DNA of 20,256 nucleotides from a virus (Duplodnaviria > Heunggongvirae > Uroviricota > Caudoviricetes), in the IMG/VR virus record IMGVR_UViG_2734482531_000002, one strand, 5' to 3'. Both the position numbers and the translations under genes were made by a program. The notes beneath the pieces were generated by a model that did no database searches, had not been told where the DNA came from, and worked only from the letters and a program-made list of their open reading frames with translations. Position 1 is the first letter of the stretch. Every line of letters begins with the position of its first letter. Of this stretch, positions 1 through 20,256 are shown piece after piece.

Positions 1-120
1 GGTCCGGGCATGAAGATACCCCGCGCTCAGCGTGGACTGATGTTCAGACGCCCATGCAGGCGCACCGGATACGGCCAGGCAAATGGCTGCGGACAAAATG
101 GCTGCACAAACTTTACGCAT
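1..120 (-). CDS. Lom/Ail/PagC-family outer-membrane protein, 5' fragment (gene continues beyond window start)
   Basis: Minus-strand ATG at 118-120 preceded by GAGAGG Shine-Dalgarno (~126-131). Translation MRKVCAAILSAAICLAVSGAPAWASEHQSTLSAGYLHAR looks like a signal peptide plus first beta-strand of Lom/Ail-type barrels. It sits where lom lies downstream of J in lambda. Not in the ORF track because it is truncated by the window edge. Confidence 0.55.
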   Translation of the reverse strand, partial: MRKVCAAILSAAICLAVSGAPAWASEHQSTLSAGYLHART

Positions 121-144
121 AATTACCTCTCGCTTTTCTGCAAT

Positions 145-168
145 AAAAAAGGCGTCATTCCTGACGCC
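145..168 (-). terminator. Rho-independent terminator downstream of J
   Basis: Inverted repeat GGCGTCA (151-157) / TGACGCC (162-168) with a 4-nt loop; on the minus strand the stem is followed by a T6 run (plus-strand A6 at 145-150). Lies 23 nt past the J stop codon. Confidence 0.6.
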
Positions 169-190
169 ATTTATTGGGGTTATAAATATT

Positions 191-3100
191 TCAACGAATA
201 CTGATGCCGGAAGCCGCTTTTTTGGTCACAATCACCGTACAGTCGGTGATATTGCCTGCCCCCTGATTGCCTTTCTGGAAAATCTTAAACTCCAGAGTGA
301 CGCTACCACCACCACTAGGCATATCAATAACTGCACTGTAACTACCGGGAATGGCACCTTTAGTTTCTCTGGATGCGATTAATACGCCGTTTTTGCGAAC
401 TTCAAAACCATAACCCGTGTATCGCGTGCCTCCTGGGTTATTTCCGCTCCCCGGATCGTCATACGCTATACCGTTAAAAATAATGGGCGGAATAATAATC
501 TGGCGGTCAAAGTTATGATCATCGCTTATGGTGACTGTAACCGTCCCGTTTGGTGTTTCCGTGTTACCCCACGTACCAGCCTGTTTCGGAAATGATTTGG
601 ATACAGCTTTAACGAAGTCACCTCTGACCTGAGTCGCCTCCAGCATGCCCTTAATCGTACAGTTTTCATTTACCGTGACATTGTTGAGCGTCCCGGCGTT
701 CGCATTCACACTGCCACTGATATCCGCATTTTTAGCGGTCAGCTTTCCGTCCGGAGTCAGGGAAAATGCCGATGGATTTCCACCGCTGGTAATGGTGGGG
801 GCCGTCAGGCGTTTCAGGAACACGTCGTTCATGAATATCTGATCGCCCTGACCAACAAACATCGGTTTTGTGTTGCCATTCGCAGGATTAACCATCGCAA
901 TCCTGTCCGCCGCCAGCAGCACCTGACTCTGCATGCCGTCAGGGGTGTTCTCAATACCGGCACCAATACCCGCGATATAAAGGCGTCCGTCCTGCATCTG
1001 CTGCAGCTTCACAGCCCACATGCTGTTCAGGTTATTATTTGTATCAACCTGAACCTTCTGTATCTGCTGAATTGCCGCACTCTGGTCTTCCAGTTTCTTA
1101 TTGACGGTCTGCGTGATTTCATTGCTGACATCCGTAATGGACGTCCTGATTTCAGCCAGGTCAGGCGCAAGCTGACCGTTATCAATCTGCGTCCACAGCT
1201 CCTGAGCCAGATGGGTTTTCCCTATCTCGCCTTTGAAAAAATCCAGATAACCGGATGCATCATCACTCGGCTGACCAACAGCCTCCACGAATGCCGATTT
1301 GCCAACGGTGTTCACACTGCGGATATAAAAGTAATAATCATGGCCCGGTTTGATATTGATACTGGCGGCTATCCAGTACAGCGCCGTGCCAAGATAGCGT
1401 GCTGTGGTTTCAACCTGCCTGATATCCGCAATCCGCTTTTCCGAGAACCAGAACTCAAACTGTACCGTCGGATCATAAACCGCAAGATGCGGCGTGGCGG
1501 TTATCTGAAAATAGCCCGGCGTCAGCTCAATCCGCGACAGCGCTGCCGGTGCGGCAATCCGGAACGATACCGACGCCGGATCGCCCTGCTGCCCCCACGC
1601 ATTTACTGCCCGGACTGTCAGCCTGTAGTTCCCCAGCGCCAGTTGTGTGAAGCGGTAAGTGGTTTCCGTCGTCCGGGCCGTGCTGACCAGCCGCTCACTG
1701 CCGTCATCCGCTGTTACGGTCAGACGGAGCAGGAAGCTCACGCCCTTCACCACCTTCGGCGTGTCCCAGCGCGCCAGCACCTGATATTCCCCGCTGTCTG
1801 CGGTGACTTCGGCAGTCAGGTGCTGCACCGCTGGCGGCGTGACACCATTCACCGTGCCGCTCTGGTCGCCGTCAAAGTGCGCCCCGTTATCCACGATGGC
1901 TTCTTTTTCCGGCACATGCTGCACGGCGGTGATGGCATACGTGCCGTCGTCGTTCTCACGGATACTCACGCAGCGGAACAATCGCTGGTGCAGCGTCGGC
2001 AGCTTCAGCCCCCACACGCTGTATTCAGCAACACCGTCAGGAACACGGCTCACTTTTACCTTCACGCCGTCGGTGACGGACTGGACCTCCACGCTGACCG
2101 GATTCCCCTGCCCGTCAACCAGGCTTATCAGCGTGGTGCCGGAGGATGGCAGCGTGATTTCACGGTCGAGCGTCAGCGTCCGGGTCTGGCTGTTCACCGC
2201 CAGCACGCGCCCGCCGGTGCGGATACCGGCATAGTCATCATCGCAGATTTCAATGACATCGCCCGGTACATGACGAAGCCCTTCAGCACCCACGCTGAAA
2301 TCCACGGTCTGCGTCTCCAGCAGTTCCGTTTTAATCAGCCACAGCCCGGCGCGGTGTGCCTGCCCCCGGCTGGTACAGCCAAAGGCATCCATCTTCGTGA
2401 CGTTACGACCGTAACGGACAATGGCCTGCGTATCCTCCACAAGCTCTGTCGCCGTCTCCCAGCCGTTATCCGGGTCAATCCAGTTCACCTCAACGGCATT
2501 ATGGCGGTCTTTCAGGGCGCTGAAACTGTAGCGGAACGGCGCGCCATCATCCGGCATCACCACATTACTGCGGTTATAGGCCCACACCTTATCCGACTGT
2601 CGGTCCTGCACGAACGTCAGCGTCTGCCCGTTCCATACCGGCATACAGCGCATCGCCGAGCAGAAATCACTGAGCACATCCCACGCCTTGCGCTGTGTGG
2701 TCAGCCAGGCATTACAGGTGATGCGCGGCTCCGTGCTGCCAAAGCCGTCCGGCACCGACTGGTCACAGTACTGGCCGATGACATACAGCGCCCATTTATC
2801 CACATCTGCCGCACCAAGACGTTTCCCCATGCCATAGCGCGGATGGGTCAGCATATCCCACAGACACCAGGCCATGTTGTTGCTGTATGCCGGTTTTAAC
2901 GTTCCGTCCCAGATACCGCTGTATTGCCGCGTCTGCGGATTATAGTTCGACGGCACCTGCAGAATGCGCCCGCGAAGATGATAATTACGGCTCACCTGCT
3001 GGCTGCCGAACTGCTCCGAATCCACCTGTACGCCGACCAGTGCCGTGTTCGGGTAGCACTGTTTCACATCGATGATTTCGGTGTATGACGACCAGAGCGT

Positions 3101-3688
3101 TTTGTTCTGCAGCTGGTCTGTGGTGCTGTCCGGCGTCATTCTGCGCATCCGGATATTAAACGGGCGCGGCGGCAGGTTATCCACCACCACCGAGACCAGA
3201 TACTGCGAGGTGGTTTTGCCCTTAATGGTGATGTCTTTTTCCGTCACCCAGCCACCGTTACGCTGTATCTGAACCAGCAGGCGAACTTCAGACGGATTCC
3301 TGTCTCCCTTTGAGGTGGTTTCCACCAGTGCCTGTACACCGAAGGTAAAGCGCAGACGGTCGATGTTTGCCGACGTGATGGTCCGGGTGATCGGCGTGTC
3401 ATATTTCACTTCCGTACCCAGCACCGTCTCGGAGCCGGAGGATTCAAATCCCTCCGGCGGTGACTGCTCCTGCTCACCTGCCCGGAACACCACCGTGACG
3501 CCGGAGATGTTGGTATTCCCCTCACTGTCCAGCACCGGCGTACTGTTCAGCAGCACGCTTTTTAATCCATCCACCGGACCTTCAACCGGCCCTTCGCTGA
3601 TGGCATCGATCACACTCAGCAGCTGCGTGGACTTCAGGTTGTCCTTCGCTTCGCGCGGGGTATGCCCCTTACTGCTGCCTTTACCCAT
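191..3688 (-). CDS. J: Tail tip / host-specificity protein J (central tail fibre), 1165 aa
   Basis: Full-length ORF; the N-terminal ~820 aa are recognisably lambda gpJ ([24 protein letters not shown]...). GGAG RBS 8 nt upstream of the ATG. The C-terminal ~350 aa diverge from lambda J (see findings). Confidence 0.96.
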
Positions 3689-3748
3689 TCGTCATGCTCC
3701 ATAAACGATAAAACCGCCCGGAGGCGATTTCACATAAAACATTTTGCA

Positions 3749-4307
3749 TCAGCGACCAATCACCACAACCTGACCACCGTCCCCTTCGTCTGCCGTGCTG
3801 ATCTCCTGAGATACCACACGTGACCCCACGCGCATTTCACCATACAGAACAGGCATAACATTGCCCTGGGCAACCATGTTATCCAGTGAGGAGAAATAGG
3901 TGTTCTGCTTACCGTTATCCGTTGTCTGTGTGCGGGGAGTTCTGGCTTTCGGTGCCAGCATCTGAGCCACACCGCCGAGCACCATACTGGCACCGAGAGA
4001 AAACAGAATGCCGGTCATACCACCGGCACCAATGGCAGCCCCCCATGCTGCAAGGGTGGCTCCGGCGGTAAAGAATGATCCGGCAATGGCGGCTGCTCCC
4101 AGGACAATCTGGAATACACCACCTGACTTGGCCCCGGCGACTCTGGGAACAATATGAATCACAGCGCCGTCAGGCAGAGCCTCATGTAACTGTGCCGTTA
4201 ATCCGGACGTGCTAACATCCTGCCCGGCAATACGCACCTGATACCAGCCGTCGCTCAGCTTCTGACGAAACGCAGGGAGCTGTGTGGCCATCGCCCGGAT
4301 GGCTTCG
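3749..4307 (-). CDS. I: Tail tip assembly protein I, C-terminal ~186 aa visible; 5' end falls in the N gap
   Basis: Frame reads ...EAIRAMATQLPAFRQKLSDGWYQVRIAG...GDGGQVVVIGR, matching the gpI C-terminus including the Gly/Ala-rich segment. The ORF-track X residues are translated Ns. Confidence 0.85.
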
Positions 4308-4582
4308 NNNNNNNNNNNNNNNNNNNNNNNNNNNNNNNNNNNNNNNNNNNNNNNNNNNNNNNNNNNNNNNNNNNNNNNNNNNNNNNNNNNNNNNNNNNNN
4401 NNNNNNNNNNNNNNNNNNNNNNNNNNNNNNNNNNNNNNNNNNNNNNNNNNNNNNNNNNNNNNNNNNNNNNNNNNNNNNNNNNNNNNNNNNNNNNNNNNNN
4501 NNNNNNNNNNNNNNNNNNNNNNNNNNNNNNNNNNNNNNNNNNNNNNNNNNNNNNNNNNNNNNNNNNNNNNNNNNNNNNNNNN
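4308..4582. other. Assembly gap (275 N)
   Basis: Uninterrupted run of n characters. It bridges the 3' end of K and the 5' end of I and creates artificial X-containing ORFs in the track. Confidence 0.98.
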
Positions 4583-4967
4583 AAGCATCCCGGAACAGCG
4601 TGTAACAGTCCGTCACCCCGTGCTCAAAGCGCCGCCCGGTAAGATGTGGCACACAGCGGAACTTGTGAATCGCCCCCCGGCAGACCAGCCACCACGGCAA
4701 ATCACTCTGCACCTGCAGCCGCCGGTCGGCCTCACTCAGCCAGGGCAGACCACCGGGGTGGCTGTGGACCAGTGCCACAATCTCACCCTGCATCTCTGCC
4801 TGCAGCCAGTCTTCCGGCGACATACGGAAATACGCCTCCGGCTCACCGGAGATATTCACGCAGGGGAAATATCTTTCCCCCTCCGGCGTTCTTACCACGA
4901 AGCCGCACGACTCCGCTGGAGCACATCGCCGGGCGTGCGCCAGAATCGCTGATTCTGTCTCTGTCAT
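4583..4967 (-). CDS. K: Tail tip assembly protein K (Mov34/NlpC-P60-like), N-terminal ~128 aa visible; 3' end in the N gap
   Basis: MTETESAILAHARRCAPAESCGFVV...HSHPGG...CYTLFRDA matches the gpK N-terminus. The start lies 6 nt downstream of the L stop. Confidence 0.85.
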
Positions 4968-4972
4968 GGGAT

Positions 4973-5671
4973 TTACTGCGAAAGTTTGTTAATGGAAAGG
5001 AAGCCGCCAAAGTTGCCGACGTTATTGCGAAACTTACAGCCACTCAGGCATTTGCTGCATTTATCCTTCGTGATGTCGGACGTTGGCTGGTCATATTCAT
5101 CCGCGACCGCCGGACCGTGATAACCGCACTCATCGCCGCGATAGGTCCAGGTGCAGGTGTTGGCCAGCATGATACGTCCCGGAAAAACAGCGCCATCTGT
5201 TTCCGTCGGCGTGGACAGTACAAAAGAGGCACTCACCGCGCTCAGTTCGCTGCACTGCTCAATGCGCCAGCGGCTGATCACCTCCTGCTCCGGATCGGCG
5301 TCACTGTTTCCGTTGACGAAGTTCACCGCATCCAGAAAACGGGCGTAAACCTTACGCCGGACCACCGTTCCGCCGACCAGACTCTGTAGATCTTCCGCCA
5401 TCCCGGTGACCATACCGTACAGGTTAGAAACCATCAGCGTGGGGCGCGTACTGGTGCCTTTGCCATTCAGTTCAAAACCACTCCCCTGAATGGGATACGG
5501 CTGATACTGTCGCCCCTGCCAGGTGACCGGCTCACCTTTTTCGTTCTGCTCATTACAGAAAAAATAACGTTCTCCACCGACCTCTGTCAGATCGATTTCC
5601 CAGAGCACCACGCTGGCCGACTGCTCCGCACGGGTGCATTCATTCAGTGTTTCCTGCCGGATATCCTGCAT
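4973..5671 (-). CDS. L: Tail tip assembly protein L, 232 aa
   Basis: Full ORF, lambda gpL-like (MQDIRQETLNECTRAEQSASVVLWEIDLTEVGGERYFFC...), with the Cys-rich C-terminus. ATG overlaps the M stop (ATGA). Confidence 0.95.
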   Translation of the reverse strand: MQDIRQETLNECTRAEQSASVVLWEIDLTEVGGERYFFCNEQNEKGEPVTWQGRQYQPYPIQGSGFELNGKGTSTRPTLMVSNLYGMVTGMAEDLQSLVGGTVVRRKVYARFLDAVNFVNGNSDADPEQEVISRWRIEQCSELSAVSASFVLSTPTETDGAVFPGRIMLANTCTWTYRGDECGYHGPAVADEYDQPTSDITKDKCSKCLSGCKFRNNVGNFGGFLSINKLSQ

Positions 5672-6000
5672 CAGTTCACCACCTGTTCAAACTCTGCGCT
5701 GAACTCAACACGCAGCATACTGACCCGCGACGACCATTTTGCGCAGGTCACCTTTATCTGCCGCCACTCATAAGGCGGCGTCCACAGAAAGGCTTTCCAG
5801 CCCCCGTGCTCTTCCAGAAACGACTCCAGTACCATGGCCTCCTCACGGGGGACAGAAAGCGTCACGCTGTACGTTTTCAGGTTGGCATTCAGCCCGGCAG
5901 GCGCTCGCTGGGAATAGCCATCACCAAAGCGCACCTTTCTTACAGAAGGGGCCGAAGCCACATCCATACCGGGTTTCACTTTCCAGCGGAAGGTTTTCAT
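5671..6000 (-). CDS. M: Tail tip assembly protein M, 109 aa
   Basis: Full ORF, lambda gpM-like (MKTFRWKVKPGMDVASAPSVRKVRFGDGYSQRAPAG...). 4-nt overlap with H. Confidence 0.95.
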   Translation of the reverse strand: MKTFRWKVKPGMDVASAPSVRKVRFGDGYSQRAPAGLNANLKTYSVTLSVPREEAMVLESFLEEHGGWKAFLWTPPYEWRQIKVTCAKWSSRVSMLRVEFSAEFEQVVN

Positions 6001-8558
6001 CGTCCACCTCCGGAGAACAGGCCACCATCACGCATCTGTGTCTGAATTTCATCACGGGCACCCTTGCGGGCCATGTCATACACGGCCTTCATCATCTGTG
6101 GACCTGGCAGACCATTCGTACCGTCGTTCTGAATCACCACGTGATTGTTCTGATTAAAATTAATGCCTTCAGCCCGCCGCATCTGCGCCGGACTTCCGGC
6201 ACCGCCCACATAACCACCTTCCGCATAGCCGCGCATCAGCCGGTAGAGATTCCCCACGCCAATCCGGCTGGTTGCCTCCTTCGTGAAGACAAATTCACCA
6301 CGGTGAACAATCCCCGCTGGCTCATATTTGCCGCCGGTTCCCGTAAATCCCCCGGTTGCAAAATGGAATTTCACCGCAGCGGCCTGAATGGCTGTACCAC
6401 CTGACGCGGATGCGCCGCCACCAACAGCCCCGCCAATGGCGCTGCCGATACTCCCGACAATCCCCACCATTGCCTGCTTAAGCAGAATTTCTGTCATCAT
6501 GGACAGCACGGAGCGGGTGAAGCTGCGCCAGTTCTGTTCACTGCCGGTCAGCATCGCCGCCATATTCTGTGCAATACCATCAAAGGTCTGCGTGGCTGCA
6601 CTTTTAACCTGTGACATACTGTCCGTGGCGCTCTCTTCCCACTCACTCCAGCCGGACTTCAGGCCTGCCATCCAGCTCCCGCGAAGCTGGTCTTCAGCCG
6701 CCCAGGTCTTTTTCTGCTCTGACATGACGTTATTCAGCGCCAGAGGATTATCGCCATACTGTTCCTTCAGGCGCTGTTCCGTGGCTTCCCGCGCTGCCTG
6801 CCGGTCAGTCAGCCCCCGGTTTTTCGCATCAATGGCTGCCCGTTTTGCCCGTTGCTGCTGTGCGAATTTATCCGCCTGCTGCGCCAGCGCATTCAGGTGC
6901 TCCTGATACGTAACCTTGTCACCAAGTGCAGCCAGCTGGCGTTTGTACTCCAGCGTCTCGTCTTTATGCGCCAGCAGGGATTTCTCCTGTGCGGACAGCT
7001 GGCGACGTTGTGCCGCCTCCTCCAGTACCGCGAACTGACTTTCTGCCTTCCACAAATCCCGGCGCTGCTGGCTGATTTTCTCATTCGCTCCGGCATGCTT
7101 CTCCAGCGTCCGGAGTTCTGCCTGAAGCGTCAGCAGGGCCGCATGAGCACTGTCTTCCTGACGATCGCCCGCATACACCTTCACGCCGGACTGTTTCGGC
7201 TTTTTCAGCGTCGCTTCATAATCCTTTTTCGCCGCCGCCATCAGCGTGTTGTAATCTGCCTGCAGGATTTTTCCGTCTTTCAGTGCCTTGTTCAGTTCTT
7301 CCTGACGGGCGGTATATTTCTCCAGCGGCGTCTGCAGCCGTTCGTAAGCCTTCTGCGCCTCTTCGGTATATTTCAGCCGTGACGCTTCGGTATCGCTCTG
7401 CTGCTGCGCATTTTTGTCCTGTTGACGCTGTTGATCTACCCTCTTTTGGGCTGCATCCCGCTCCAGGCGTTTTTTTTCACGATCATCCCAGTAACGCGCC
7501 CGTGCTTCATCGTTAACGAAATAATCATCCTTGCGCAGATTCCAGATGTCGTCTGCTTTCTTAAACGCAGCCTCTGCCTTAATCAGCATCTCCTGCGCGG
7601 TATCAGGACGACCAATATCCAGCACCGCATCCCACATGGATTTGAATGCACGTGCAGTCCTGTCTGCCCAGGTCTCCAGCGTGCCCATGTTCTCTTTCAG
7701 GCGGCGGGTCTGGTCATCAAACCCTTTCGTTGCGGCCTCGTTCGCCGCCTGCAATGCCCCGGCTTCATCGCCGGAACGCTGCAACTGAGCAACATACGCA
7801 ATCTGCTCCGCCGTCACGTTATGGAACTGGCGTGCCATCGCCGTCAGCCCCGACGTCGGGTCTGTGGTCAGCTTCCCGAAGGCTTCAGCGACCTTGTCCA
7901 CCTCCACGCCGGATGCATAGGAGAAACGCGCCACACTCTGGCTGATGGACGCAATCTGAGCCTCACCGCTTACCCCCGCCTTAACCAGTGCGCTGAGTGA
8001 CTCGCTGGTCTGGTTAAACGTCAGCCCTGCCGCCTGCCCGGCTCTGGACAGGACCAGCATACGATCTGCCGTCAGTCCCGCCTGATTACCGGAAAGGACC
8101 AGCGTTTTGTTGAAATCGGACAGGGTTGAGTTGCCCTGATACCAGGCATACGCCAGCGCACCGGTCGCCACCGCCAGCGAGGTGGCCCCCACCATCGGCA
8201 GGGTGATCGCGCCGGCAAGCCCCCTGAACATGGGGATCATCCCGCCGAAGGAGTCCTTAACCTGACCACCCTGTTGCAGCAGGATCAGCCAGGGATTCTG
8301 CCCCCCTGCAAGCTGCGTGGCCACGTCGGTGAACTGTGCAGGCAGCATACGCATGGCGGCTTTATACTGCCCGACGGAAATCCCCGCTTTCTGTGCAGCC
8401 AGCGCCTGTCGGCTCAGCGACTGTTCAACGACTGCCGCTGTTTTTTTCGCATCACTTTCCGTACCGGAAAAATGACGCCTGACTCTGGCCATCTGCTCGT
8501 CAAATCTGGCCGCATCCAGACTCAAATCAACGACCAGATCGCCTACCGGTTCAGCCAT
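5997..8558 (-). CDS. H: Tail tape-measure protein H, 853 aa
   Basis: Full ORF of the same length as lambda gpH. Ala/Gln/Arg-rich coiled-coil centre and Gly-rich C-terminus. Overlaps the T frame at its 5' end. Confidence 0.96.
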   Translation of the reverse strand: MAEPVGDLVVDLSLDAARFDEQMARVRRHFSGTESDAKKTAAVVEQSLSRQALAAQKAGISVGQYKAAMRMLPAQFTDVATQLAGGQNPWLILLQQGGQVKDSFGGMIPMFRGLAGAITLPMVGATSLAVATGALAYAWYQGNSTLSDFNKTLVLSGNQAGLTADRMLVLSRAGQAAGLTFNQTSESLSALVKAGVSGEAQIASISQSVARFSYASGVEVDKVAEAFGKLTTDPTSGLTAMARQFHNVTAEQIAYVAQLQRSGDEAGALQAANEAATKGFDDQTRRLKENMGTLETWADRTARAFKSMWDAVLDIGRPDTAQEMLIKAEAAFKKADDIWNLRKDDYFVNDEARARYWDDREKKRLERDAAQKRVDQQRQQDKNAQQQSDTEASRLKYTEEAQKAYERLQTPLEKYTARQEELNKALKDGKILQADYNTLMAAAKKDYEATLKKPKQSGVKVYAGDRQEDSAHAALLTLQAELRTLEKHAGANEKISQQRRDLWKAESQFAVLEEAAQRRQLSAQEKSLLAHKDETLEYKRQLAALGDKVTYQEHLNALAQQADKFAQQQRAKRAAIDAKNRGLTDRQAAREATEQRLKEQYGDNPLALNNVMSEQKKTWAAEDQLRGSWMAGLKSGWSEWEESATDSMSQVKSAATQTFDGIAQNMAAMLTGSEQNWRSFTRSVLSMMTEILLKQAMVGIVGSIGSAIGGAVGGGASASGGTAIQAAAVKFHFATGGFTGTGGKYEPAGIVHRGEFVFTKEATSRIGVGNLYRLMRGYAEGGYVGGAGSPAQMRRAEGINFNQNNHVVIQNDGTNGLPGPQMMKAVYDMARKGARDEIQTQMRDGGLFSGGGR

Positions 8559-9389
8559 ACCGGACTCCTCCTGCGATCCCTTCTGATACTGTCATCAGCA
8601 TTACGTCATCCTCCGTCATGTCCGCCACATCCGGGGAAGCGGGGATAACTTCATTCCCGTCCGGGCCAAAGCGGACACCTCCGGCAAGCCCTGCCGCTTT
8701 CTGCATCAGCACATCATCTTCAGGCTCTTCGTCAGCCTCGCGCCGGTTCAGCAGACTGAAATCCAGCGGATGCATCTCCGGATCGCTGAAAAACAGGCTG
8801 AGCACGGTGTACGTCAGCCCGGAAAAGTGCATATCCAGCAGAACATCATGAAAATAATGGGTACTGTAAAAGCGGTGCCAGTCGGCATACTCCGTGGATG
8901 ACATCCCGGCAAGCATGGCGCGCCAGTCGGGTCGCCCCATCTCACGCGCCAGTTTCAGGGCAAAACTCAGCTCACCGTCGAACACTTTCCCGCAGAAACA
9001 GGCTCTGCAGGCCCGGCGTCCTCTGCCTGTTCAGGAGCATCATTCACCACAAACTCATACATACCGGACAGCCGGTACACCACGTTTTCAGCATGAGAAA
9101 TTGCCTCTGTGGGCCAGGTGGTAAGCACTTCCTGCTCAATCTGTTTAACGGCTTCATTCATGGACGGCATCTGCGTCTTCTTCGGATGGTTATGCCACAG
9201 GGACATCGCAACCACAAAAGCGCCGGTTCTGATGGCGTCTTCCACAGTAAACTTCCGGTTGCTGTCTGACTCCGCCTGTTCTGCCTGCCGTTTCATCAGG
9301 TCGAGATGCTCAATACGCTGCAGGGCTGACAGTTCAGAAAGCGTGACGGTCACACCGTTATGTTCAAATGATTCGGTTTTCAGGAACAT
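8551..9389 (-). CDS. T: Tail assembly chaperone G-T fusion, made by a programmed -1 ribosomal frameshift at 8985-8991
   Basis: The T reading frame (8551-8985) has no start of its own other than a GTG inside the slippery site and lies in the -1 frame relative to G. The slippery heptamer G GGA AAG sits 16 nt before the G stop, as in lambda G/T. Confidence 0.85.
8967..9389 (-). CDS. G: Tail assembly chaperone G, 140 aa
   Basis: Full ORF MFLKTESFEHNGVTVTLSELSALQRIEHL...SAGKCSTVS, lambda gpG-like. Confidence 0.95.
   Translation of the reverse strand: MFLKTESFEHNGVTVTLSELSALQRIEHLDLMKRQAEQAESDSNRKFTVEDAIRTGAFVVAMSLWHNHPKKTQMPSMNEAVKQIEQEVLTTWPTEAISHAENVVYRLSGMYEFVVNDAPEQAEDAGPAEPVSAGKCSTVS
8985..8991 (-). 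promoter_or_regulatory. -1 programmed frameshift slippery heptamer GGGAAAG (X XXY YYZ = G GGA AAG)
   Basis: Plus strand CTTTCCC at 8985-8991 is GGGAAAG on the minus strand. In the G frame it reads G-GGA-AAG; after a -1 slip the reading continues GKVFDGELSF..., which is the T frame. Confidence 0.85.
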
Positions 9390-9404
9390 CGCTGACTCTC
9401 CGGA

Positions 9405-10145
9405 TTAACTGGCGGTGACGTTGATTTCTGCAACCGCAGCAAACTCACCATTACCAGATACGACCGGAATGTTGACCTTGCCTGCAGCAACACCTTTCAC
9501 GGTGATGGTCATACCACTGACCGACACGGTGGCTTTTGTTTTATCCGCAGACACCGCACGGAAGCTCTTGTCGGTTGCGCCATCCGGCTGGAATGCCACG
9601 GTCAGCGTGGTGCTCTGCCCTTTCACTACGGAAGCACTGGCGGGTGTCACCGTCATGCCGGTCGTCGCCGTCACCGTGCTGCGATCTTCTGCCATCGACG
9701 GACGTCCCACATTGGTGACCTTCACCGTGCGGGTAATCACCTCCTTCGCCGTCACCGCCTTACCGATACTGCTGACCCAGCCACGGAACACATCGACCGT
9801 GCCGTTCGGGAAGCGGATTTTATAGGCACGGGTATCACCTTCATTAAACCACGCCAGCAGCGCCTGCTGCCCCTGCTCTCCGGGCATCCACGCCAGCGTG
9901 AAGCTGGTATCTCCGGCAGATTTCTGCCCCTGCCCGGTCGCAGTCCAGTCTGCATCTTCATCATCGAGATAGCTGTCGTCATAGGACTCAGCGGTCAGTT
10001 CGCCGGGCGTCAGGTCTTTAACTTTTGCCAGACGCGACCAGTCAACGTCTGAAAGCGGGTTCGCATAAGGGTCACCGCTCCCCTTATAAACCCACAGGGT
10101 GGTCCCGGCACCTTTCACCGGCATTGTAGGATTTGGTACAGGCAT
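9405..10145 (-). CDS. V: Major tail tube protein V, 246 aa, with C-terminal Ig-like (Big_2-type) domain
   Basis: ORF track begins at 10175, but the protein matching gpV starts at the internal Met ([22 protein letters not shown]...). The 10 upstream codons overlap the U 3' end; a GAGGA RBS precedes the internal ATG. Confidence 0.93.
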
Positions 10146-10152
10146 AGCGTCC

Positions 10153-10548
10153 TCACATTTCATAGATAATGACATAAGTCAGATCGGCTGAACTCCACAG
10201 GCCCGCATCATCGTCGCGCCGGTAGTCATAGCCGCTGGCCACCATACTGGTGATCAAATCTGACAGTGCCGGGATATCGCTCATCACAGGATAAATCCGG
10301 GACTCCATCCACGAATCCAGCTCTGAATCCGGCACCTGAGCAGGCAGGAAAACTTCAATATGCAGCTCCGCCTGCCAGGTATCGCTGTCCAGCTCTTCGC
10401 CCGTGTATTCAGCGCCGGTGAGATAAACGGCAATTGCCGGAAAATCTTCCTCATCAAAAACAGCGGGGCGACCATCAAAAAGCGTCGCCCCGGTGTCATG
10501 CTTCTCCAGTGCATCCAGTACGGCTGCACGGAGTTCAGTATGTTTCAT
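10153..10548 (-). CDS. U: Tail terminator protein U, 131 aa
   Basis: Full [36 protein letters not shown]..., lambda gpU-like. 4-nt overlap with Z. Confidence 0.95.
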
Positions 10549-11123
10549 CGCTTTATTACCATTCTCAGTTGATGCTGCAGCGCATAGCCCAGCTCTTTCG
10601 GAAGACGTTCACGCCGTATCCGTTCAATATTCTGTTTAAACGCCGTGGTCAGCGGCACCGCCATCGGGATTTTCACCACATCAATGGGGTAACGGTTTTT
10701 CCCGGCCACACGCTGCATAACATGCCACCGGCCGTTTTTCAGTTGCTGAATAAACGCGCCGGGAATACGACGGTTACCCACCACAAGCACGCTGCCGCCA
10801 CCTTTCAGGGATGAACGCTGCCCCTTTTTATGACGCCTGCGGCGGGACAGGACAACCCGCGCATTACCCAGCTTGATTACGGGCAAATCCCCCCGGTTAA
10901 CTTTGATTCTGGCCTGCGGATTTTTGACCGTGGCCCTTTTCAGCCTGGCCCTTTCCTTTACCAGTTTCCGGCGTACCTTTGTCTCACGGGCAACCTGTGA
11001 CGCAGACTGCGATATCGCGGATGAAGCAACGCGGTTAATGGCCATTGCGGCGGCACCGGGCACCGCCGTTTTGCTGATACGGCTGAGGTTTTCAACGGCC
11101 TGCTCAAGACCTTTTATGGCCAT
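10545..11123 (-). CDS. Z: Tail completion protein Z, 192 aa
   Basis: Full ORF MAIKGLEQAVENLSRISKTAVPGAAAMAINRV..., lambda gpZ-like. Confidence 0.95.
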   Translation of the reverse strand: MAIKGLEQAVENLSRISKTAVPGAAAMAINRVASSAISQSASQVARETKVRRKLVKERARLKRATVKNPQARIKVNRGDLPVIKLGNARVVLSRRRRHKKGQRSSLKGGGSVLVVGNRRIPGAFIQQLKNGRWHVMQRVAGKNRYPIDVVKIPMAVPLTTAFKQNIERIRRERLPKELGYALQHQLRMVIKR

Positions 11124-11134
11124 ACATCCCCCTT

Positions 11135-11488
11135 TCAGCGGCGACGGTTAACGGCAGGCGGTACGCCCCGTCCAAGCCAGAGATGACAACTTCCGCCATC
11201 ATCCGGCGAAACCCGATCTACCCAGAAATTTTCCTCACCGATGGTCAGCGTGTCTCCACGCCGCAGCTGCCGCACCTCATCAGTCCGGACAAACAGGGAC
11301 GGGCTGGAGCCTTCAACGCGCACGCCCTGTCCGGCATAGCTGATATTTTCAGGGTCATCAAAAACACCACGTATCACCGCACCTGACTGCTCACCGGATG
11401 TCATGGTGGCTGACGTTCCCATGTACCCGCGTATCGTTTCATCGGCGCGGGCAATGGCAGCATCGAACAGGTTATCGAAATCAGCCAC
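11135..11488 (-). CDS. FII: Head-tail joining / head completion protein FII, 117 aa
   Basis: Full ORF MADFDNLFDAAIARADETIRGYMGTSATMTSGEQ..., lambda gpFII-like. Confidence 0.95.
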   Translation of the reverse strand: MADFDNLFDAAIARADETIRGYMGTSATMTSGEQSGAVIRGVFDDPENISYAGQGVRVEGSSPSLFVRTDEVRQLRRGDTLTIGEENFWVDRVSPDDGGSCHLWLGRGVPPAVNRRR

Positions 11489-11499
11489 AGCGCCTCCCG

Positions 11500-11898
11500 T
11501 TATTGCATTCTGGCCAGGCCGCGCTCTGTCATTTCGGCTGCCACACCGGCAGAGACACGAAACGCCGTTCCCGGCAGCACAAATGCCACAGGTTTATCCC
11601 GCGTGGCGTGAAGTGCATCAGTATGCAGCGTCACCAGTGCCACGACCGTGACCAGTTCAGCCGTATCCTGAATCACGGTATCCGGCTGCGCTGATACCAC
11701 CTCATTTTCATGCCCGGTCAGCACATTTTCCCGGCTGAGAGGGGTGTCCTGACCGGCAGTTTCATCCGTGTCATCAAGCTCTTCTTCCAGCTCTGCCACA
11801 CGAAGCGCCAGTTCTTCTTTCGTTCCCGTCAAACTGACATCGCGGTTCAATTGCTCACCCAGCTCCTGAAGACGGGCAATCAGTTCATCTTTCGTCAT
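11500..11898 (-). CDS. FI: DNA-packaging accessory protein FI, 132 aa
   Basis: ORF track extends to 11937, but the gpFI match starts at MTKDELIARLQELGEQLNRDV... . That ATG (11896-11898) is preceded by a GGAGGAG RBS. The central DTDETAGQDTP linker is present. Confidence 0.9.
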   Translation of the reverse strand: MTKDELIARLQELGEQLNRDVSLTGTKEELALRVAELEEELDDTDETAGQDTPLSRENVLTGHENEVVSAQPDTVIQDTAELVTVVALVTLHTDALHATRDKPVAFVLPGTAFRVSAGVAAEMTERGLARMQ

Positions 11899-11939
11899 GA
11901 ACTCCTCCACAGAGAGAAAATGGCCCCGAAGGGCCATGA

Positions 11940-12965
11940 TTACGCCAGTTGAACGGACACGAACTCATCAGGATCAGCCAGCAGCATCAGCGGTGCTGAC
12001 TGAATCATGGTGAACTCACGCGCCGGATCGCCGGTGGTCACCCAGTTTTTCGGGTAACGGGCAGAAGCGTTAATGCCTTCGCGCTGTGCGTCCGCATCCT
12101 GAATGCAGCCATAGGTGCGCAGACCGCGAGCCTGAGTGTTCCCCAGCACCATCGTGTTGTCCGGCAGGAAGTTCTTTTTGACGCCGTTTTCCACGTACTG
12201 TCCGGAATACACGACGATGGCCACATCGCCATACATTCCCTTATAGGACACCGCTTTGCCCAGGTCTTTTACCGCTGTCTCCAGCTCGGAATGAGAGCCG
12301 CGACGGGTATCCAGCTTCTCCTTGACGGCTTTGAAGGAACGGAACAGCGCCCAGCCTTTCGGGTCAAACACGATGATATTCACCACACCGCTGGCGTTCA
12401 GCGCGTAGGCTTCGATATCGTCGGTCGGGTCATACGTGGACTTGTCACGCTTGCTCCACTCCGTGACGCCGGACTGTGTGATGTTGTTCGCCGCACTGCG
12501 GCCCATATCCACCTCAACCGGATCGAAGGCTTCACCGGTCATGGTGTATTTGCCCTTGAGCACGGCAGAAACTGCCTGCATCTCTTCGACCTGAGCAATG
12601 GCCAGCTCTTCGTCACGCATGTTCTGCATGATGATGCGACGGCGGCGGTAAGCCGGGTCCGCCAGATTCTGCGGATCTTCATCCGGCAGGCGACGCAGGG
12701 TCATCTGCGGATTCACCTCATGCTTGGGTTTGACATATCCCGGCGTAAATTCAGAGGTGGAGCCGCCACGGGAACGGATAACCTCACCGGAAACAATCGG
12801 CGAAACGTACAGCGCCATGTTTACCAGTCCCGGAATTTGTGAGAGATAGACTTTCTCCGTAGTGAAGGGATAGCTCTCACGGAAAAAGAGACGCAGAAAC
12901 AGCGGATCAAACTTAAATTTCTGCTCATTTGCCGCCAGCAGCTGGGCGGTTGTGTACATCGACAT
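11940..12965 (-). CDS. E: Major capsid protein E, ~341 aa
   Basis: ORF track extends to 12992; the gpE match starts at MSMYTTAQLLAANEQKFKFDPLFL... . Start coordinate is approximate (+/- 1-2 nt) because I could not verify the exact base at the ATG by eye. Confidence 0.93.
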   Translation of the reverse strand: MSMYTTAQLLAANEQKFKFDPLFLRLFFRESYPFTTEKVYLSQIPGLVNMALYVSPIVSGEVIRSRGGSTSEFTPGYVKPKHEVNPQMTLRRLPDEDPQNLADPAYRRRRIIMQNMRDEELAIAQVEEMQAVSAVLKGKYTMTGEAFDPVEVDMGRSAANNITQSGVTEWSKRDKSTYDPTDDIEAYALNASGVVNIIVFDPKGWALFRSFKAVKEKLDTRRGSHSELETAVKDLGKAVSYKGMYGDVAIVVYSGQYVENGVKKNFLPDNTMVLGNTQARGLRTYGCIQDADAQREGINASARYPKNWVTTGDPAREFTMIQSAPLMLLADPDEFVSVQLA

Positions 12966-13020
12966 AAAAAAATCCCGTAAAAAAAGCCACACAGGCGGCC
13001 TTTAGTGATGAAGGGTAAAG

Positions 13021-13353
13021 TTAAACGATGCTGATTGCCGTTCCGGCAAACACGGTCCGTTTTTTCGTCTCGTCGCTGGCAGCCTCCGGCCAGAGCACAT
13101 CCTCATAACGGAACGTGCCGGACTTGTAGAACGTCAGTGTGGTGCTGGTCTGGTCAGCAGCAACCGCAAGAATGCCAACGGCAGCACCGTCGGTGGTGCC
13201 ATCCCACGCAACCAGCTTACGGGTGGAGGTGTCCAGCATCAGCGGGGTCATTGCAGGCGCTTTCGCACTCAATCCGCCGGGCGCGGTTGCGGTATGAGCC
13301 GGGTCACTATTGCCCAGCGGCTGGTAATGGGTAAAGGTTTCTTTGCTCGTCAT
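13021..13353 (-). CDS. D: Capsid decoration protein D, 110 aa
   Basis: gpD match begins at [27 protein letters not shown]..., two codons inside the ORF-track start. Confidence 0.94.
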
Positions 13354-13362
13354 AAACATCCC

Positions 13363-13968
13363 TTACACTGGTGTGTTCAGCAAATCGTTAACGGCATCAG
13401 ATGCCGGGTTACCTGCAGCCAGCGGTGCCGGTGCCCCCTGCATCAGACGATCCAGCGCAGTGTCACTGCGCGTCTGTGCACTCTGTGGTGCTGCGGCCAG
13501 AATACGGCGGGCCGTTTCCACGGTCATACCGGGGGTTTCGGCCAGCACGCGTGCCTGTTCTTCGCGTCCGTGAGCCTCCTCACAGTTGAGGATCCCCATA
13601 ATGCGACTGTTTTCTGCCGCAACCGCTGCGGTGATCTGCGCGTTCACGTCCGGCTGCGCCGCGCTGGCGTTCTCGCCCTCCGTCGCTTGCACCACGCCAG
13701 TAACGTCAGCCTGCGAAGCAGTGGCTGAAACAGTTGTTGATTGAGTCTCTTTGGTCATTCGCCCTCCTGAGAGACGGGATTTACGTGCATCCAGTGCATC
13801 ACGCATGACGGTGATCGCATCGGTACTGTTAACAAGTTCATCAGCCAGTCCGGCATCAATGGCCTCCTGACCGCTGTACACTGCAGCCTCGGTATCCAGC
13901 ACAGCCTGCACGGACAGGCCGGTATATGCCGACACCTTCTGTGCAAACATCCGGCGGGTTGCATCCAT
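13363..13968 (-). CDS. Nu3: Scaffolding protein Nu3, nested in-frame in the 3' third of C (coordinates approximate)
   Basis: Placed by analogy with lambda, where Nu3 is the C-terminal ~201 codons of the C frame started from an internal site. The exact internal start was not verified base by base. Confidence 0.55.
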   Translation of the reverse strand: MDATRRMFAQKVSAYTGLSVQAVLDTEAAVYSGQEAIDAGLADELVNSTDAITVMRDALDARKSRLSGGRMTKETQSTTVSATASQADVTGVVQATEGENASAAQPDVNAQITAAVAAENSRIMGILNCEEAHGREEQARVLAETPGMTVETARRILAAAPQSAQTRSDTALDRLMQGAPAPLAAGNPASDAVNDLLNTPV

Positions 13969-14662
13969 CCGGGACTGCAATGTTTCCCGGACATCATCCG
14001 GTAGATGGCTGTAGGGGTTGCCATCCACCTTATGGCTGCCGCTGTAAATCAGCGTGATTTCCACGCCCTGTTTCTCCAGTGCAGCGCCGTAATTACTGTG
14101 AGCCATCATGACGCCGATGGAGCCTGTCCGGGCGGTCTGCGTGACCAGACGCCGGGAGGCGGCACTGGCAAGCAGCTGACCTGCGCTGCAGTTCATGTCA
14201 TTGGCCAGCGCCCATACCGGCTTTATGTCACGCACACGGGCGATGATGTCAGCGCAGTCAAATGCTCCCGCCACCATTCCGCCCGGTGTGTCCATATCGA
14301 GCAGAATGCCGTCCACCATCGGGTCGCTGGCAGCCTGTTGCAGACGGGCGATAATGCCGTTGTAACCGGTCATCCCCGAGTACGGCTGCAGCGCCCGCGT
14401 CCGGCTGACCAGCGTGCCGGACACCGGCAGCACGGCGATGCCGTTCATTACCTGATAACTGCGGGCCTGTCGTGGTCCGTCATCATCACCGGATAACGCC
14501 AGCGCCGCGGGTGCCTCTCCGGCAGTCAGGCTGTCGCCGGATACTGCATCCGTCAGGCAGCTGATCCCAAGCTGGCCTGCAAGCGCACAAAAGAAAACCC
14601 GCGCATAGGCGGGTTCAAGCATCAGCGGCTCATTAAAAGCCATGCTGGCAATATGCGGGAGA

Positions 14663-14682
<20 letters not shown>
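13363..14682 (-). CDS. C: Prohead protease / minor capsid protein C, 439 aa
   Basis: gpC-like sequence begins at VTAELRNLPHIASMAFNEPLMLEPAYARVFF... with an apparent GTG start at 14680-14682. Overlaps the B 3' end by 20 nt as in lambda. The long upstream ORF extension (to 14817) is B-overlapping read-through and is not counted. Confidence 0.9.
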
Positions 14683-18363
<3,681 letters not shown>

Positions 18364-18389
<26 letters not shown>

Positions 18390-18909
18390 TCAGCAACCCC
18401 GGTATCAGTTCATCCAGCGCGGCTGCTTTGTTCATGGCTTTGATGATATCCCGTTTCAGGAAATCAACATGTCGGTTTTCCAGTTCCGGAAAACGCCGCT
18501 GCACCGACAGGGGGATCCCGTCGAGAATACTGGCAATTTCACCTGCGATCCGCGACAGCACGAAAGTACAGAATGCGGTTTCCACCACTTCAGCGGAGTC
18601 TCTGGCATTTTTCAGCTCCTGTGCGTCGGCCTGCGCACGCGTAAGTCGATGGCGTTCGTACTCAATAGTCCCTGGCTGGAGATCTGTCTCGCTGGCCTGC
18701 CGCAGTTCTTCAACTTCCCGGCGCAGCTTTTCGTTCTCAATTTCAGCATCCCTTTCGGCATACCATCTTATAACGGCGGCAGAGTCATAAAGCACCTCAT
18801 TACCCTTGCCACCGCCTCGCAGAACGGGCATTCCCTGTTCCTGCCAGTTCTGAATGGTACGGATACTCGCACCGAAAATGTCAGCCAGCTGCTTTTTGTT
18901 GACTTCCAT
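18364..18909 (-). CDS. Nu1: Terminase small subunit Nu1 (cosB-binding), 181 aa
   Basis: Full ORF MEVNKKQLADIFGASIRTIQNWQEQGMPVLRGGGKGNEVLYDSAAVIRWY..., lambda gpNu1-like with an N-terminal winged-HTH. Confidence 0.97.
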
Positions 18910-18933
18910 TGTTCATTCCACGGACAAAAACAG

Positions 18934-19046
18934 AGAAAGGAAACGACAGAGGCCAAAAAGCCCGTTTTCAGCACCTGTCGTTTCCTTTCTTTTCAGGGGG
19001 TGTTTTAAATAAAAACATTAGGTTACGGCGAAGAAGAACGGAAACG
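18934..19046. promoter_or_regulatory. cosB: terminase (gpNu1) binding elements R1, R2, R3 with intervening IHF-site region
   Basis: Three copies of the R-element core (minus-strand sense CTGTCGTTTCCTTTCT-like): 18934-18949 and 18975-18990 form an inverted pair, and a third copy sits at ~19031-19046 (CGTTTCCGTTCTTCTTCG on the minus strand). They lie between the Nu1 start and cosN as in lambda cosB. Confidence 0.75.
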
Positions 19047-19086
19047 CCTTAAACCGGAAAATTGTCATAAATAGCGAAAACCCGCG

Positions 19087-19098
19087 CGCCTTCCGCCC
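19087..19098. other. cosN (12-nt cohesive-end / terminase nicking site); minus-strand sense GGGCGGAAGGCG
   Basis: Flanks align with the lambda left and right ends: CCCGCG on the Nu1 side and CGTAACCTGTCGGATC.CCGGAAAGGACCCG on the right-arm side. The 12 nt between them occupy the cosN position. Confidence 0.7.
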
Positions 19099-19297
19099 CG
19101 TAACCTGTCGGATCGCCGGAAAGGACCCGCAAAATGATAATAATTATCATCTACATGTCACAACGTGCATCTACGCCATCAAACCACGTCAAATAATCAA
19201 TTATGACGCAGGTATCGTATTAATTGATCTGCATCAACTTAACGTAAAAACAACTTCAGACAATACAAATCAGCGACACTGAATACAGGGCAACCTC

Positions 19298-19531
19298 ATG
19301 TCAACGAAGAACAGAACCCGCAGAACAACAACCCGCAACATCCGCTTTCCTAACCAAATGATTGAACAAATTAACATCGCTCTTGTTCAAAAAGGGTCCG
19401 GGAATTTCTCAGCCTGGGTCATTGAAGCCTGCCGCCGGAGACTGTGCTCAGAAAAAAGAGTTTCGCCTGAAGCAAACAAAGAAAAGAGTGACATTACTGA
19501 ATTGCTCAGAAAACAGGTTAGACCAGATTGA
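19298..19531 (+). CDS. Small ribbon-helix-helix (Arc/CopG-like) protein, YlcI/DUF3950-like, 77 aa
   Basis: ORF MSTKNRTRRTTTRNIRFPNQMIEQINIALVQKGSGNFSAWVIEACRRRL... : basic N-tail, then a beta-strand (NIRFP), helix, G-x-S/N turn, helix, which is the RHH signature. Resembles from memory the YlcI protein found next to the terminase gene in the DLP12 prophage. AT-rich relative to the structural genes. Confidence 0.7.
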   Translation: MSTKNRTRRTTTRNIRFPNQMIEQINIALVQKGSGNFSAWVIEACRRRLCSEKRVSPEANKEKSDITELLRKQVRPD

Positions 19532-19588
19532 AGCAATTTAGATAATCGTGCAGACTACGCCCCCTCATATCACATGGAAGGTACTACA

Positions 19589-19999
19589 ATGGCTCAGGTT
19601 GCCATTTTTAAACAAATATTCGATAAAGTGCGAAATAATTTAAACTATCACTGGTTTTATTCTGAACTAAAACGTCACAATGTCTCACATTACATTTACT
19701 ATTTAGCCACAGAGAATATTCATCTTGTTCTTGAAAACGATAATACGGTTTTAATAAAAGGACAGGGTAAGGTTGTAAATGTAAGATTTTCAAAAAATAA
19801 ATGCCTTATAGAAGCCACCTTAAAAGGATTCAAATCAGGAGAGTTATCATTTTACGAATACAGGAAAAATCTTGCTACAGCAGGGGTTTTCAGATGGATT
19901 ACAAATATCCACGAAAACAAAAGGTATTACTATACCTTTGATAATTCATTACTCTTTACTGAGAACATACAGAACACTACACAAATATTTCCGCACTAA
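19589..19999 (+). CDS. DUF1398-family protein, YbcV-like, 136 aa
   Basis: ORF track starts at 19574 (MEGTT...), but a GGAAGG RBS at 19577-19582 is correctly spaced for the second ATG at 19589 ([45 protein letters not shown]...). Sequence and length recall the DLP12 ybcV product. Low GC and AT-rich codon usage. Confidence 0.75.
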
Positions 20000-20256
20000 A
20001 TCATAACGTCCGGTTTCTTCCGTGCCAGAACCGGACTCGCTGGCATGATGAAATATGTGTACCCGGTAACCCCGGTGTGCATCGTTTTTGATTATTCCCG
20101 CACACTCGCGCAGAAGGAGTTCCCCGTCGGGCTACGGTCTCTGTTAATACGGGAATACGGCGACGATTGGATTTGCCCCTATATTTCCAGACATCTGTTA
20201 TCACTTAACCCATTACAAGCCCGCTGCCGCAGATATTCCCGTGGCGAGCGATAACC

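Follow-up and report, generated by a model that had tools for sequence, protein, structure and literature searches.

Mosaic gene J of a lambda-like prophage, with a 434-type tip domain predicted to bind OmpC

Results

Gene J and its surroundings

The window analysed in this study is the whole contig CWWQ01000075.1 of assembly GCA_001251735.1 (20,256 bases), which is cut at both ends. According to the ORF list and the translation, gene J, encoding the central tail fibre or tip attachment protein, occupies positions 191-3688 on the minus strand, with 1165 codons followed by a stop codon at 191-193. The called genes place it after K and I and before the start of a lom-like gene, in the order I, J, lom-like, colinear with lambda. 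A Pfam search detected six gpJ domains in J, all above cut-off and in the lambda order, i.e., FNIII-A (PF24801), Phage-tail_3 (PF13550), Ig_J (PF24421), Ig_J_second (PF24489), Phage_Tail_Tip (PF09327) and Ig_GpJ_C (PF12421). In addition, the lambda gpJ structure in the PDB (8iyk) matches amino acids (aa) 1-836 of the protein with E=0. J is a member of the gpJ family both by its full, ordered set of domains and by its position in the tail gene cluster.

The DNA from Nu1 to K (window 4583-19086) is 97.4% identical to lambda 13-14516, and because of this near-identity the virion module appears to be almost that of lambda itself, apart from the end of J. Considering the gpJ domains, the neighbouring K, I and lom-like genes and the Nu1-K region together, we conclude that J is a normal central tail fibre gene of a lambda-like prophage.

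Further features were observed in the DNA around J. The first 40 codons of a gene for an outer-membrane protein of the Ail/Lom family lie at 1-120 on the minus strand, where the gene is cut by the contig end; this assignment is based on the translation and on the annotation in matching E. coli genomes. The N-terminus of the product (MRKVCAAILSAAICLAVSGAPAWA...), of which these 40 codons are on the contig, is quite unlike that of lambda Lom (MRNVCIAVAVFAALAVTVTPARA...). Between the J stop codon and the lom start, a pattern scan picked out a GC-rich hairpin at 151-168 on the minus strand (GGCGTCA-GGAA-TGACGCC, then the T run TTTTTTATT), which is a putative terminator by its pattern. The K/I region is interrupted by a run of 275 N (window 4308-4582), the flanks of which align to lambda 14516 and 14887; it replaces approximately 370 bases of lambda-equivalent sequence and probably stems from a gap in the assembly of this contig as deposited. 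At the other end, window 19093-20167 falls outside the part of lambda that was compared (1-23000) and is 98.6-99.6% identical to PhiR49_1, Kati, Chlobot and ev099, in which it is annotated as YbcV, YlcI/YnfO-family and hypothetical proteins. This stretch presumably represents the right-hand, cos-adjacent end of the prophage genome. The mechanical ORF list also contains a 562-aa open frame antisense to J (window 1211-2899, plus strand) in the GC-rich part of the gene, and nothing is annotated in lambda at the matching position.

Modular composition of J

J was aligned with the J proteins of lambda (reference NP_040600, from NC_001416, 1132 aa), cdtI, 434B, lambda h434 imm21, phage 21, 2B8 and 2851, and the shaft, fibre and tip domains were named after the lambda gpJ structure paper (PMC11101478). 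These alignments show a protein composed of a lambda hub, a phage 21 shaft and a 434 tip, joined round a conserved island. We consider it probable that J was assembled from four exchangeable modules, each of them known from other lambdoid phages, and we assign a probability of roughly 80% to this explanation as a whole, including the binding of OmpC discussed below.

An earlier note on this DNA had described J as a mosaic with a lambda-like N-terminal part that departs from lambda near residue 821 (nt ~1230), and as 1165 aa long compared with 1132 aa in lambda. These points agree with our results. Residues 1-816 are 96.7% identical to lambda with divergence thereafter. In the DNA, the identity to lambda is ~98% near window nt ~1363 and down to 70% near ~1184, and the fall was placed at nt ~1273 to ~1184, corresponding to aa ~806-835. 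The identity is back at 88-94% over window nt ~644-868, and falls to 40-65% beyond. Both the ORF and the alignment give the same length, and the extra residues consist of a 28-aa insertion and small indels in the tip. The proposal of a replaced C-terminal region, on the other hand, had to be revised, since this part comprises two modules that assort independently, a phage 21-type shaft and a 434-type tip, with the island between them: 434 and 2B8 combine a short shaft with a 434-type tip, while phage 21 combines the long shaft with another tip.

The first module (aa 1-816; 1241-3688, minus strand) was defined by the alignments and by PF24801, PF13550, PF24421 and PF24489, and contains the hub domains and two FNIII/Ig domains of the lambda type. 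Its identity to lambda is 96.7% in protein and 95.5% in DNA, and the protein is similarly close to 434B (97.3%), phage 21 (97.1%), 2B8 (97.1%) and cdtI (96.9%), but only 72.8% identical to 2851.

The second module (aa 817-945; 854-1240, minus strand), delimited by alignments, covers the alpha-helical shaft and the upper straight fibre. Being 28 residues longer than in lambda and having a matching upper fibre, it is the long shaft of the phage 21/cdtI type, with gap-free identities of 97-98% to phage 21 and 99-100% to cdtI. The short-shaft phages lambda, 434 and 2B8 all reach 42-50% here; in one set of alignments the values were 48-50% for lambda, 49-50% for 434B and 46-48% for 2B8, with 56-63% for 2851. 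Split into sub-segments, the identity to lambda is 42-50% for aa 817-870, depending on the alignment, and 48% for aa 871-945. The alignment gaps place the 28-residue insertion relative to lambda J inside the helical shaft at aa 837-864 (1097-1180, minus strand). Its hydrophobic residues, as read from the sequence, are spaced 3-4 apart, and in a low-confidence AlphaFold2 model aa 843-877 form one helix that spans part of the insertion. Most likely, the insertion does no more than extend the bundle of helices, as it does in phage 21. The model was a single-sequence prediction of aa 800-1165 with a mean pLDDT of 44.7, too low to serve in a fold search, and the fold was instead assigned from sequence matches to solved gpJ structures.

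The third module, also delimited by alignments, is the conserved island in the lower straight fibre (aa 946-998; 695-853, minus strand). It is 92.5% identical to lambda, 98% to cdtI and 85-87% to 434 and 21, and is a likely crossover site between modules. An island had already been suspected at nt ~685-915; it is real, but its true start lies ~15 residues later than was then thought.

The C-terminal tip module

The fourth module (aa 999-1165; 194-694, minus strand), defined by alignments and PF12421, consists of the neck and the Ig-like receptor-binding domain and corresponds to the phage 434 (h434) allele, a predicted OmpC binder. We use the term neck for aa 999-1022, which link the conserved island to the actual receptor-binding domain. 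The neck is 100% identical to cdtI and 2B8, 92% to 434B and 2851, 63% to phage 21 and 58% to lambda. In the tip proper (aa 1023-1165), the identity is 99.3% to 2B8, 97.9% to cdtI and 2851, and 94.4% to 434B and lambda h434, compared with 42% to phage 21 and ~40% to lambda, from which it also differs by four indels of 2, 6, 1 and 6 residues.

The last ~150 aa had been taken to be unrelated to the lambda C-terminus. This reading does not hold: aligned alone, the last 151 aa are colinear with lambda J 988-1131 (E=1.7e-17, ~40% identity), and Pfam PF12421 (Ig_GpJ_C) matches aa 1029-1164 with E=3.2e-25. An unrelated tip is ruled out by these two results. The tip falls in the same domain family as the tips of lambda and A8 (PF12421; PDB 8iyk, 8xcj, 9wca), its best PDB match when searched alone being A8 gpJ (E=3e-26). 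By sequence, it is a diverged member of the lambda tip's own domain family.

Three types of tip were considered. A LamB-type tip would be expected to resemble lambda J closely over aa ~990-1132, contact loops included, and such closeness is lacking here, given the ~40% identity and the indels. A tip of the phage 21/A8 type is likewise not indicated by an identity of 42% to phage 21 over aa 1023-1165 and a match to A8 of only E=3e-26. The segment that defines h434, however, is matched with high identity and without indels: over aa 999-1165, 434B shares 157 of the 167 residues, the remaining 10 being substitutions in a gap-free alignment. Only one residue differs from 2B8, and most of the 10 differences from 434B are common to other natural phages (2B8, cdtI, 2851). 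The J protein of lambda h434 equals that of 434B from aa 681 onward and differs from lambda J at 114 residues. Because 106 of these 114 differences fall in aa 999-1165 (window numbering), the classical 434 host-range allele is essentially the tip module.

Within the tip region, a fine-scale mosaic was observed in the DNA of window 374-733 (J aa ~986-1105). At aa ~986-1045, the DNA is closer to cdtI and 2B8 (97-100% identity) than to 434 and 2851 (87-93%), and at aa ~1061-1105 the order is reversed, with 98-100% identity to 434 and 2851 and 84-89% to cdtI and 2B8.

The GC content falls from 0.587 in aa 1-816 to 0.475 in aa 999-1165, compared with 0.547 in the lambda tip. The drop that had been read as a sign of a horizontally acquired module is therefore real, but it is weak evidence for acquisition by this prophage, since every 434-type tip examined is alike in this respect (0.467-0.481) and the shaft module has a GC content of ~0.50 in both alleles, lambda included. 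On these grounds, we set aside the idea that the low GC reflects recent acquisition here. The composition is consistent with a separate history of the module, and it carries no information on recent acquisition by this prophage.

Discussion

Predicted receptor

From the identity of the tip we infer that the receptor of this J is probably OmpC rather than LamB (probability about 0.8), because the tip is 94% identical to the allele of 434 and lambda h434, which use OmpC. Replacement of lambda J by the 434 gene gives a phage that binds OmpC, which is also the receptor of 434 itself (PMC11101478, PMC3509688), and the 434 fibre has been described as OmpC-targeting (PMC12502783). The suggestion in the earlier note that the phage uses a receptor other than LamB is thus likely to be right, this being the allele that redirects lambda to OmpC. 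Other OmpC-binding tips are those of phage 21, A8 (PDB 9wca; PMC11338833) and phi330, and they are only ~40-50% identical to the tip in the window.

For carriers of the same full allele (cdtI, mEp332, Ayreon, Stx phages), we found no receptor data, nor did the literature on mEp332, the PhiR phages and the Laub-lab temperate panel yield receptor assignments. The supplements of the base-editing paper contained neither the A8 and 1A2 gpJ sequences nor peptides from the window tip, and a receptor-prediction preprint of 2026 covers J of Drexlerviridae, not lambdoid tips. Side tail fibres can also take part in adsorption, lambda Stf with OmpC being an example (PMC11338833); the contig stops within lom, and any side tail fibre genes would lie outside the sequenced stretch.

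Continued use of LamB as in lambda, with the sequence divergence being neutral, would be compatible with the shared domain family and the colinear alignment of the two tips, but it is very improbable in view of the ~40% identity, the four indels of 1-6 residues and the 94% identity to h434, an allele isolated for shifting the host range away from LamB. A few substitutions in a J tip can switch receptor use, as in the switch of lambda to OmpF. The ten substitutions relative to 434B in aa 999-1165 might accordingly direct the tip to a different outer-membrane protein, such as OmpF or some further porin, or restrict it to few of the OmpC alleles. Phage 21 J has been reported to gain new receptors through J mutations (PMC11336670), and the tips of 434, phage 21/A8 and phi330 all use OmpC at a mutual identity of ~40-50%, yet the OmpC-binding tips of A8 and 1A2 accept different OmpC alleles (PMC11338833). 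Such a changed or narrowed specificity nevertheless seems rather unlikely for a tip that is 94% identical to an allele genetically tied to OmpC, and the occurrence of its differences from 434B in many natural phages (2B8, cdtI, 2851) suggests ordinary allelic variation within one specificity class.

A further reading is that the gene sits in a defective prophage remnant and no longer functions in adsorption, whatever its specificity. Many lambdoid prophages of E. coli are defective, and the contig of 20 kb has both ends cut and a run of N inside K and I. We regard a remnant as quite unlikely, however, as the reading frame of J is open over its full length and encodes all six domains, and the Nu1-K region, so close to lambda, has no visible disruption besides the assembly gap. 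It is also conceivable, though on the whole unlikely, that the pairing of a long phage 21-type shaft with a 434-type tip changes the reach of the tip or the relay from binding to tail opening, or that the substitutions relative to 434 retune the tip to the OmpC alleles of the natural host. If true, either effect would make the allele functionally distinct from both parents.

Proposed mechanism

In the structures of lambda gpJ with LamB, the part after the two FNIII domains is divided into an alpha-helical shaft, a straight fibre made of beta-sheet and a receptor-binding domain of the Ig-like type, which reaches into the porin with four loops; on binding, the three tip domains move apart, the fibre is twisted, the shaft flips and the tail is opened (PMC11101478). 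Three copies of the J studied here would, in analogy to lambda gpJ, form the tail tip, and their three Ig-like tip domains would insert loops into a trimeric porin. Rearrangement of the fibre and shaft would then open the tail for DNA ejection. With a tip of the h434 allele, this porin would most likely be OmpC rather than LamB.

Relatives and distribution

Among the closest known relatives is the tail tip protein of phage cdtI (BAF63351.1, AB285204), which has the same 1165 aa and the same four modules and is 97.4% identical overall (98-100% in shaft, island and tip). It differs by ~30 scattered substitutions, the DNA from J to lom is only ~93% identical, and a short stretch inside the tip of the window J (aa ~1061-1105) resembles 434 and 2851 more than it does cdtI. 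The central tail fibre of 434 and of the lambda h434 hybrid (OL657227, OM418627; receptor OmpC) shares the hub at 97% and the tip at 94% without indels, but the 434 protein has a short, lambda-type shaft that lacks the 28-aa insertion, is 42-50% identical in aa 817-945, and is 1137 aa long. Phage 21 (OL657228; receptor OmpC) shares the hub at 97% and the long shaft and upper fibre at 97-98%, but carries another tip allele that is 42% identical with indels and that, judged by eye from the alignments, resembles the tip of the A8 gpJ chimera (PDB 9wca/9wcb). Lambda gpJ (NP_040600; PDB 8iyk, 8xcj) has the same domain order and family, with 96.7% identity in aa 1-816 and 92.5% in the island, but differs in its shorter shaft, in its tip (~40% identical with four indels) and in its receptor, LamB.

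In a translated search of ~50,000 phage records, 24 records share the C-terminal 346 aa at 95-99%, and carriers of this allele include cdtI, phi458, Ayreon, mEp332, ev243, ev099 and several Stx2 phages. The tip alone (143 aa) is present at 90% identity or more in 74 phage records, phage 434 being among them at 94.4%. Of 5426 complete E. coli genomes, 2113 contain the tip DNA, in most cases at 90-99% identity. Chromosomes of E. coli also match the whole stretch from J to lom with identities of up to 97.3%, and the gene is annotated there as gpJ. Judged by these matches, the whole J allele is already known, from phage cdtI at 97.4% and from many prophages. Exchange of the J C-terminus among lambdoid phages has been documented before, as has this allele, and J is an ordinary, widespread mosaic in keeping with textbook exchange of lambdoid J modules. 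What our analysis adds is little beyond annotation, namely a concrete and testable receptor prediction (OmpC) for this prophage, together with a clean example of shaft and tip reassortment round a conserved island in lambdoid J that is useful for host-range engineering.

When one genome per species was scanned for the tip, three loci only were obtained, in Escherichia and on one contig of a Collinsella metagenome-assembled genome, and this result says little about the distribution beyond Escherichia. The Collinsella contig (JAGZNZ010000056.1, 1350 bases) encodes a tip that is 99% identical to that of the window and is almost certainly a mis-binned E. coli phage fragment.
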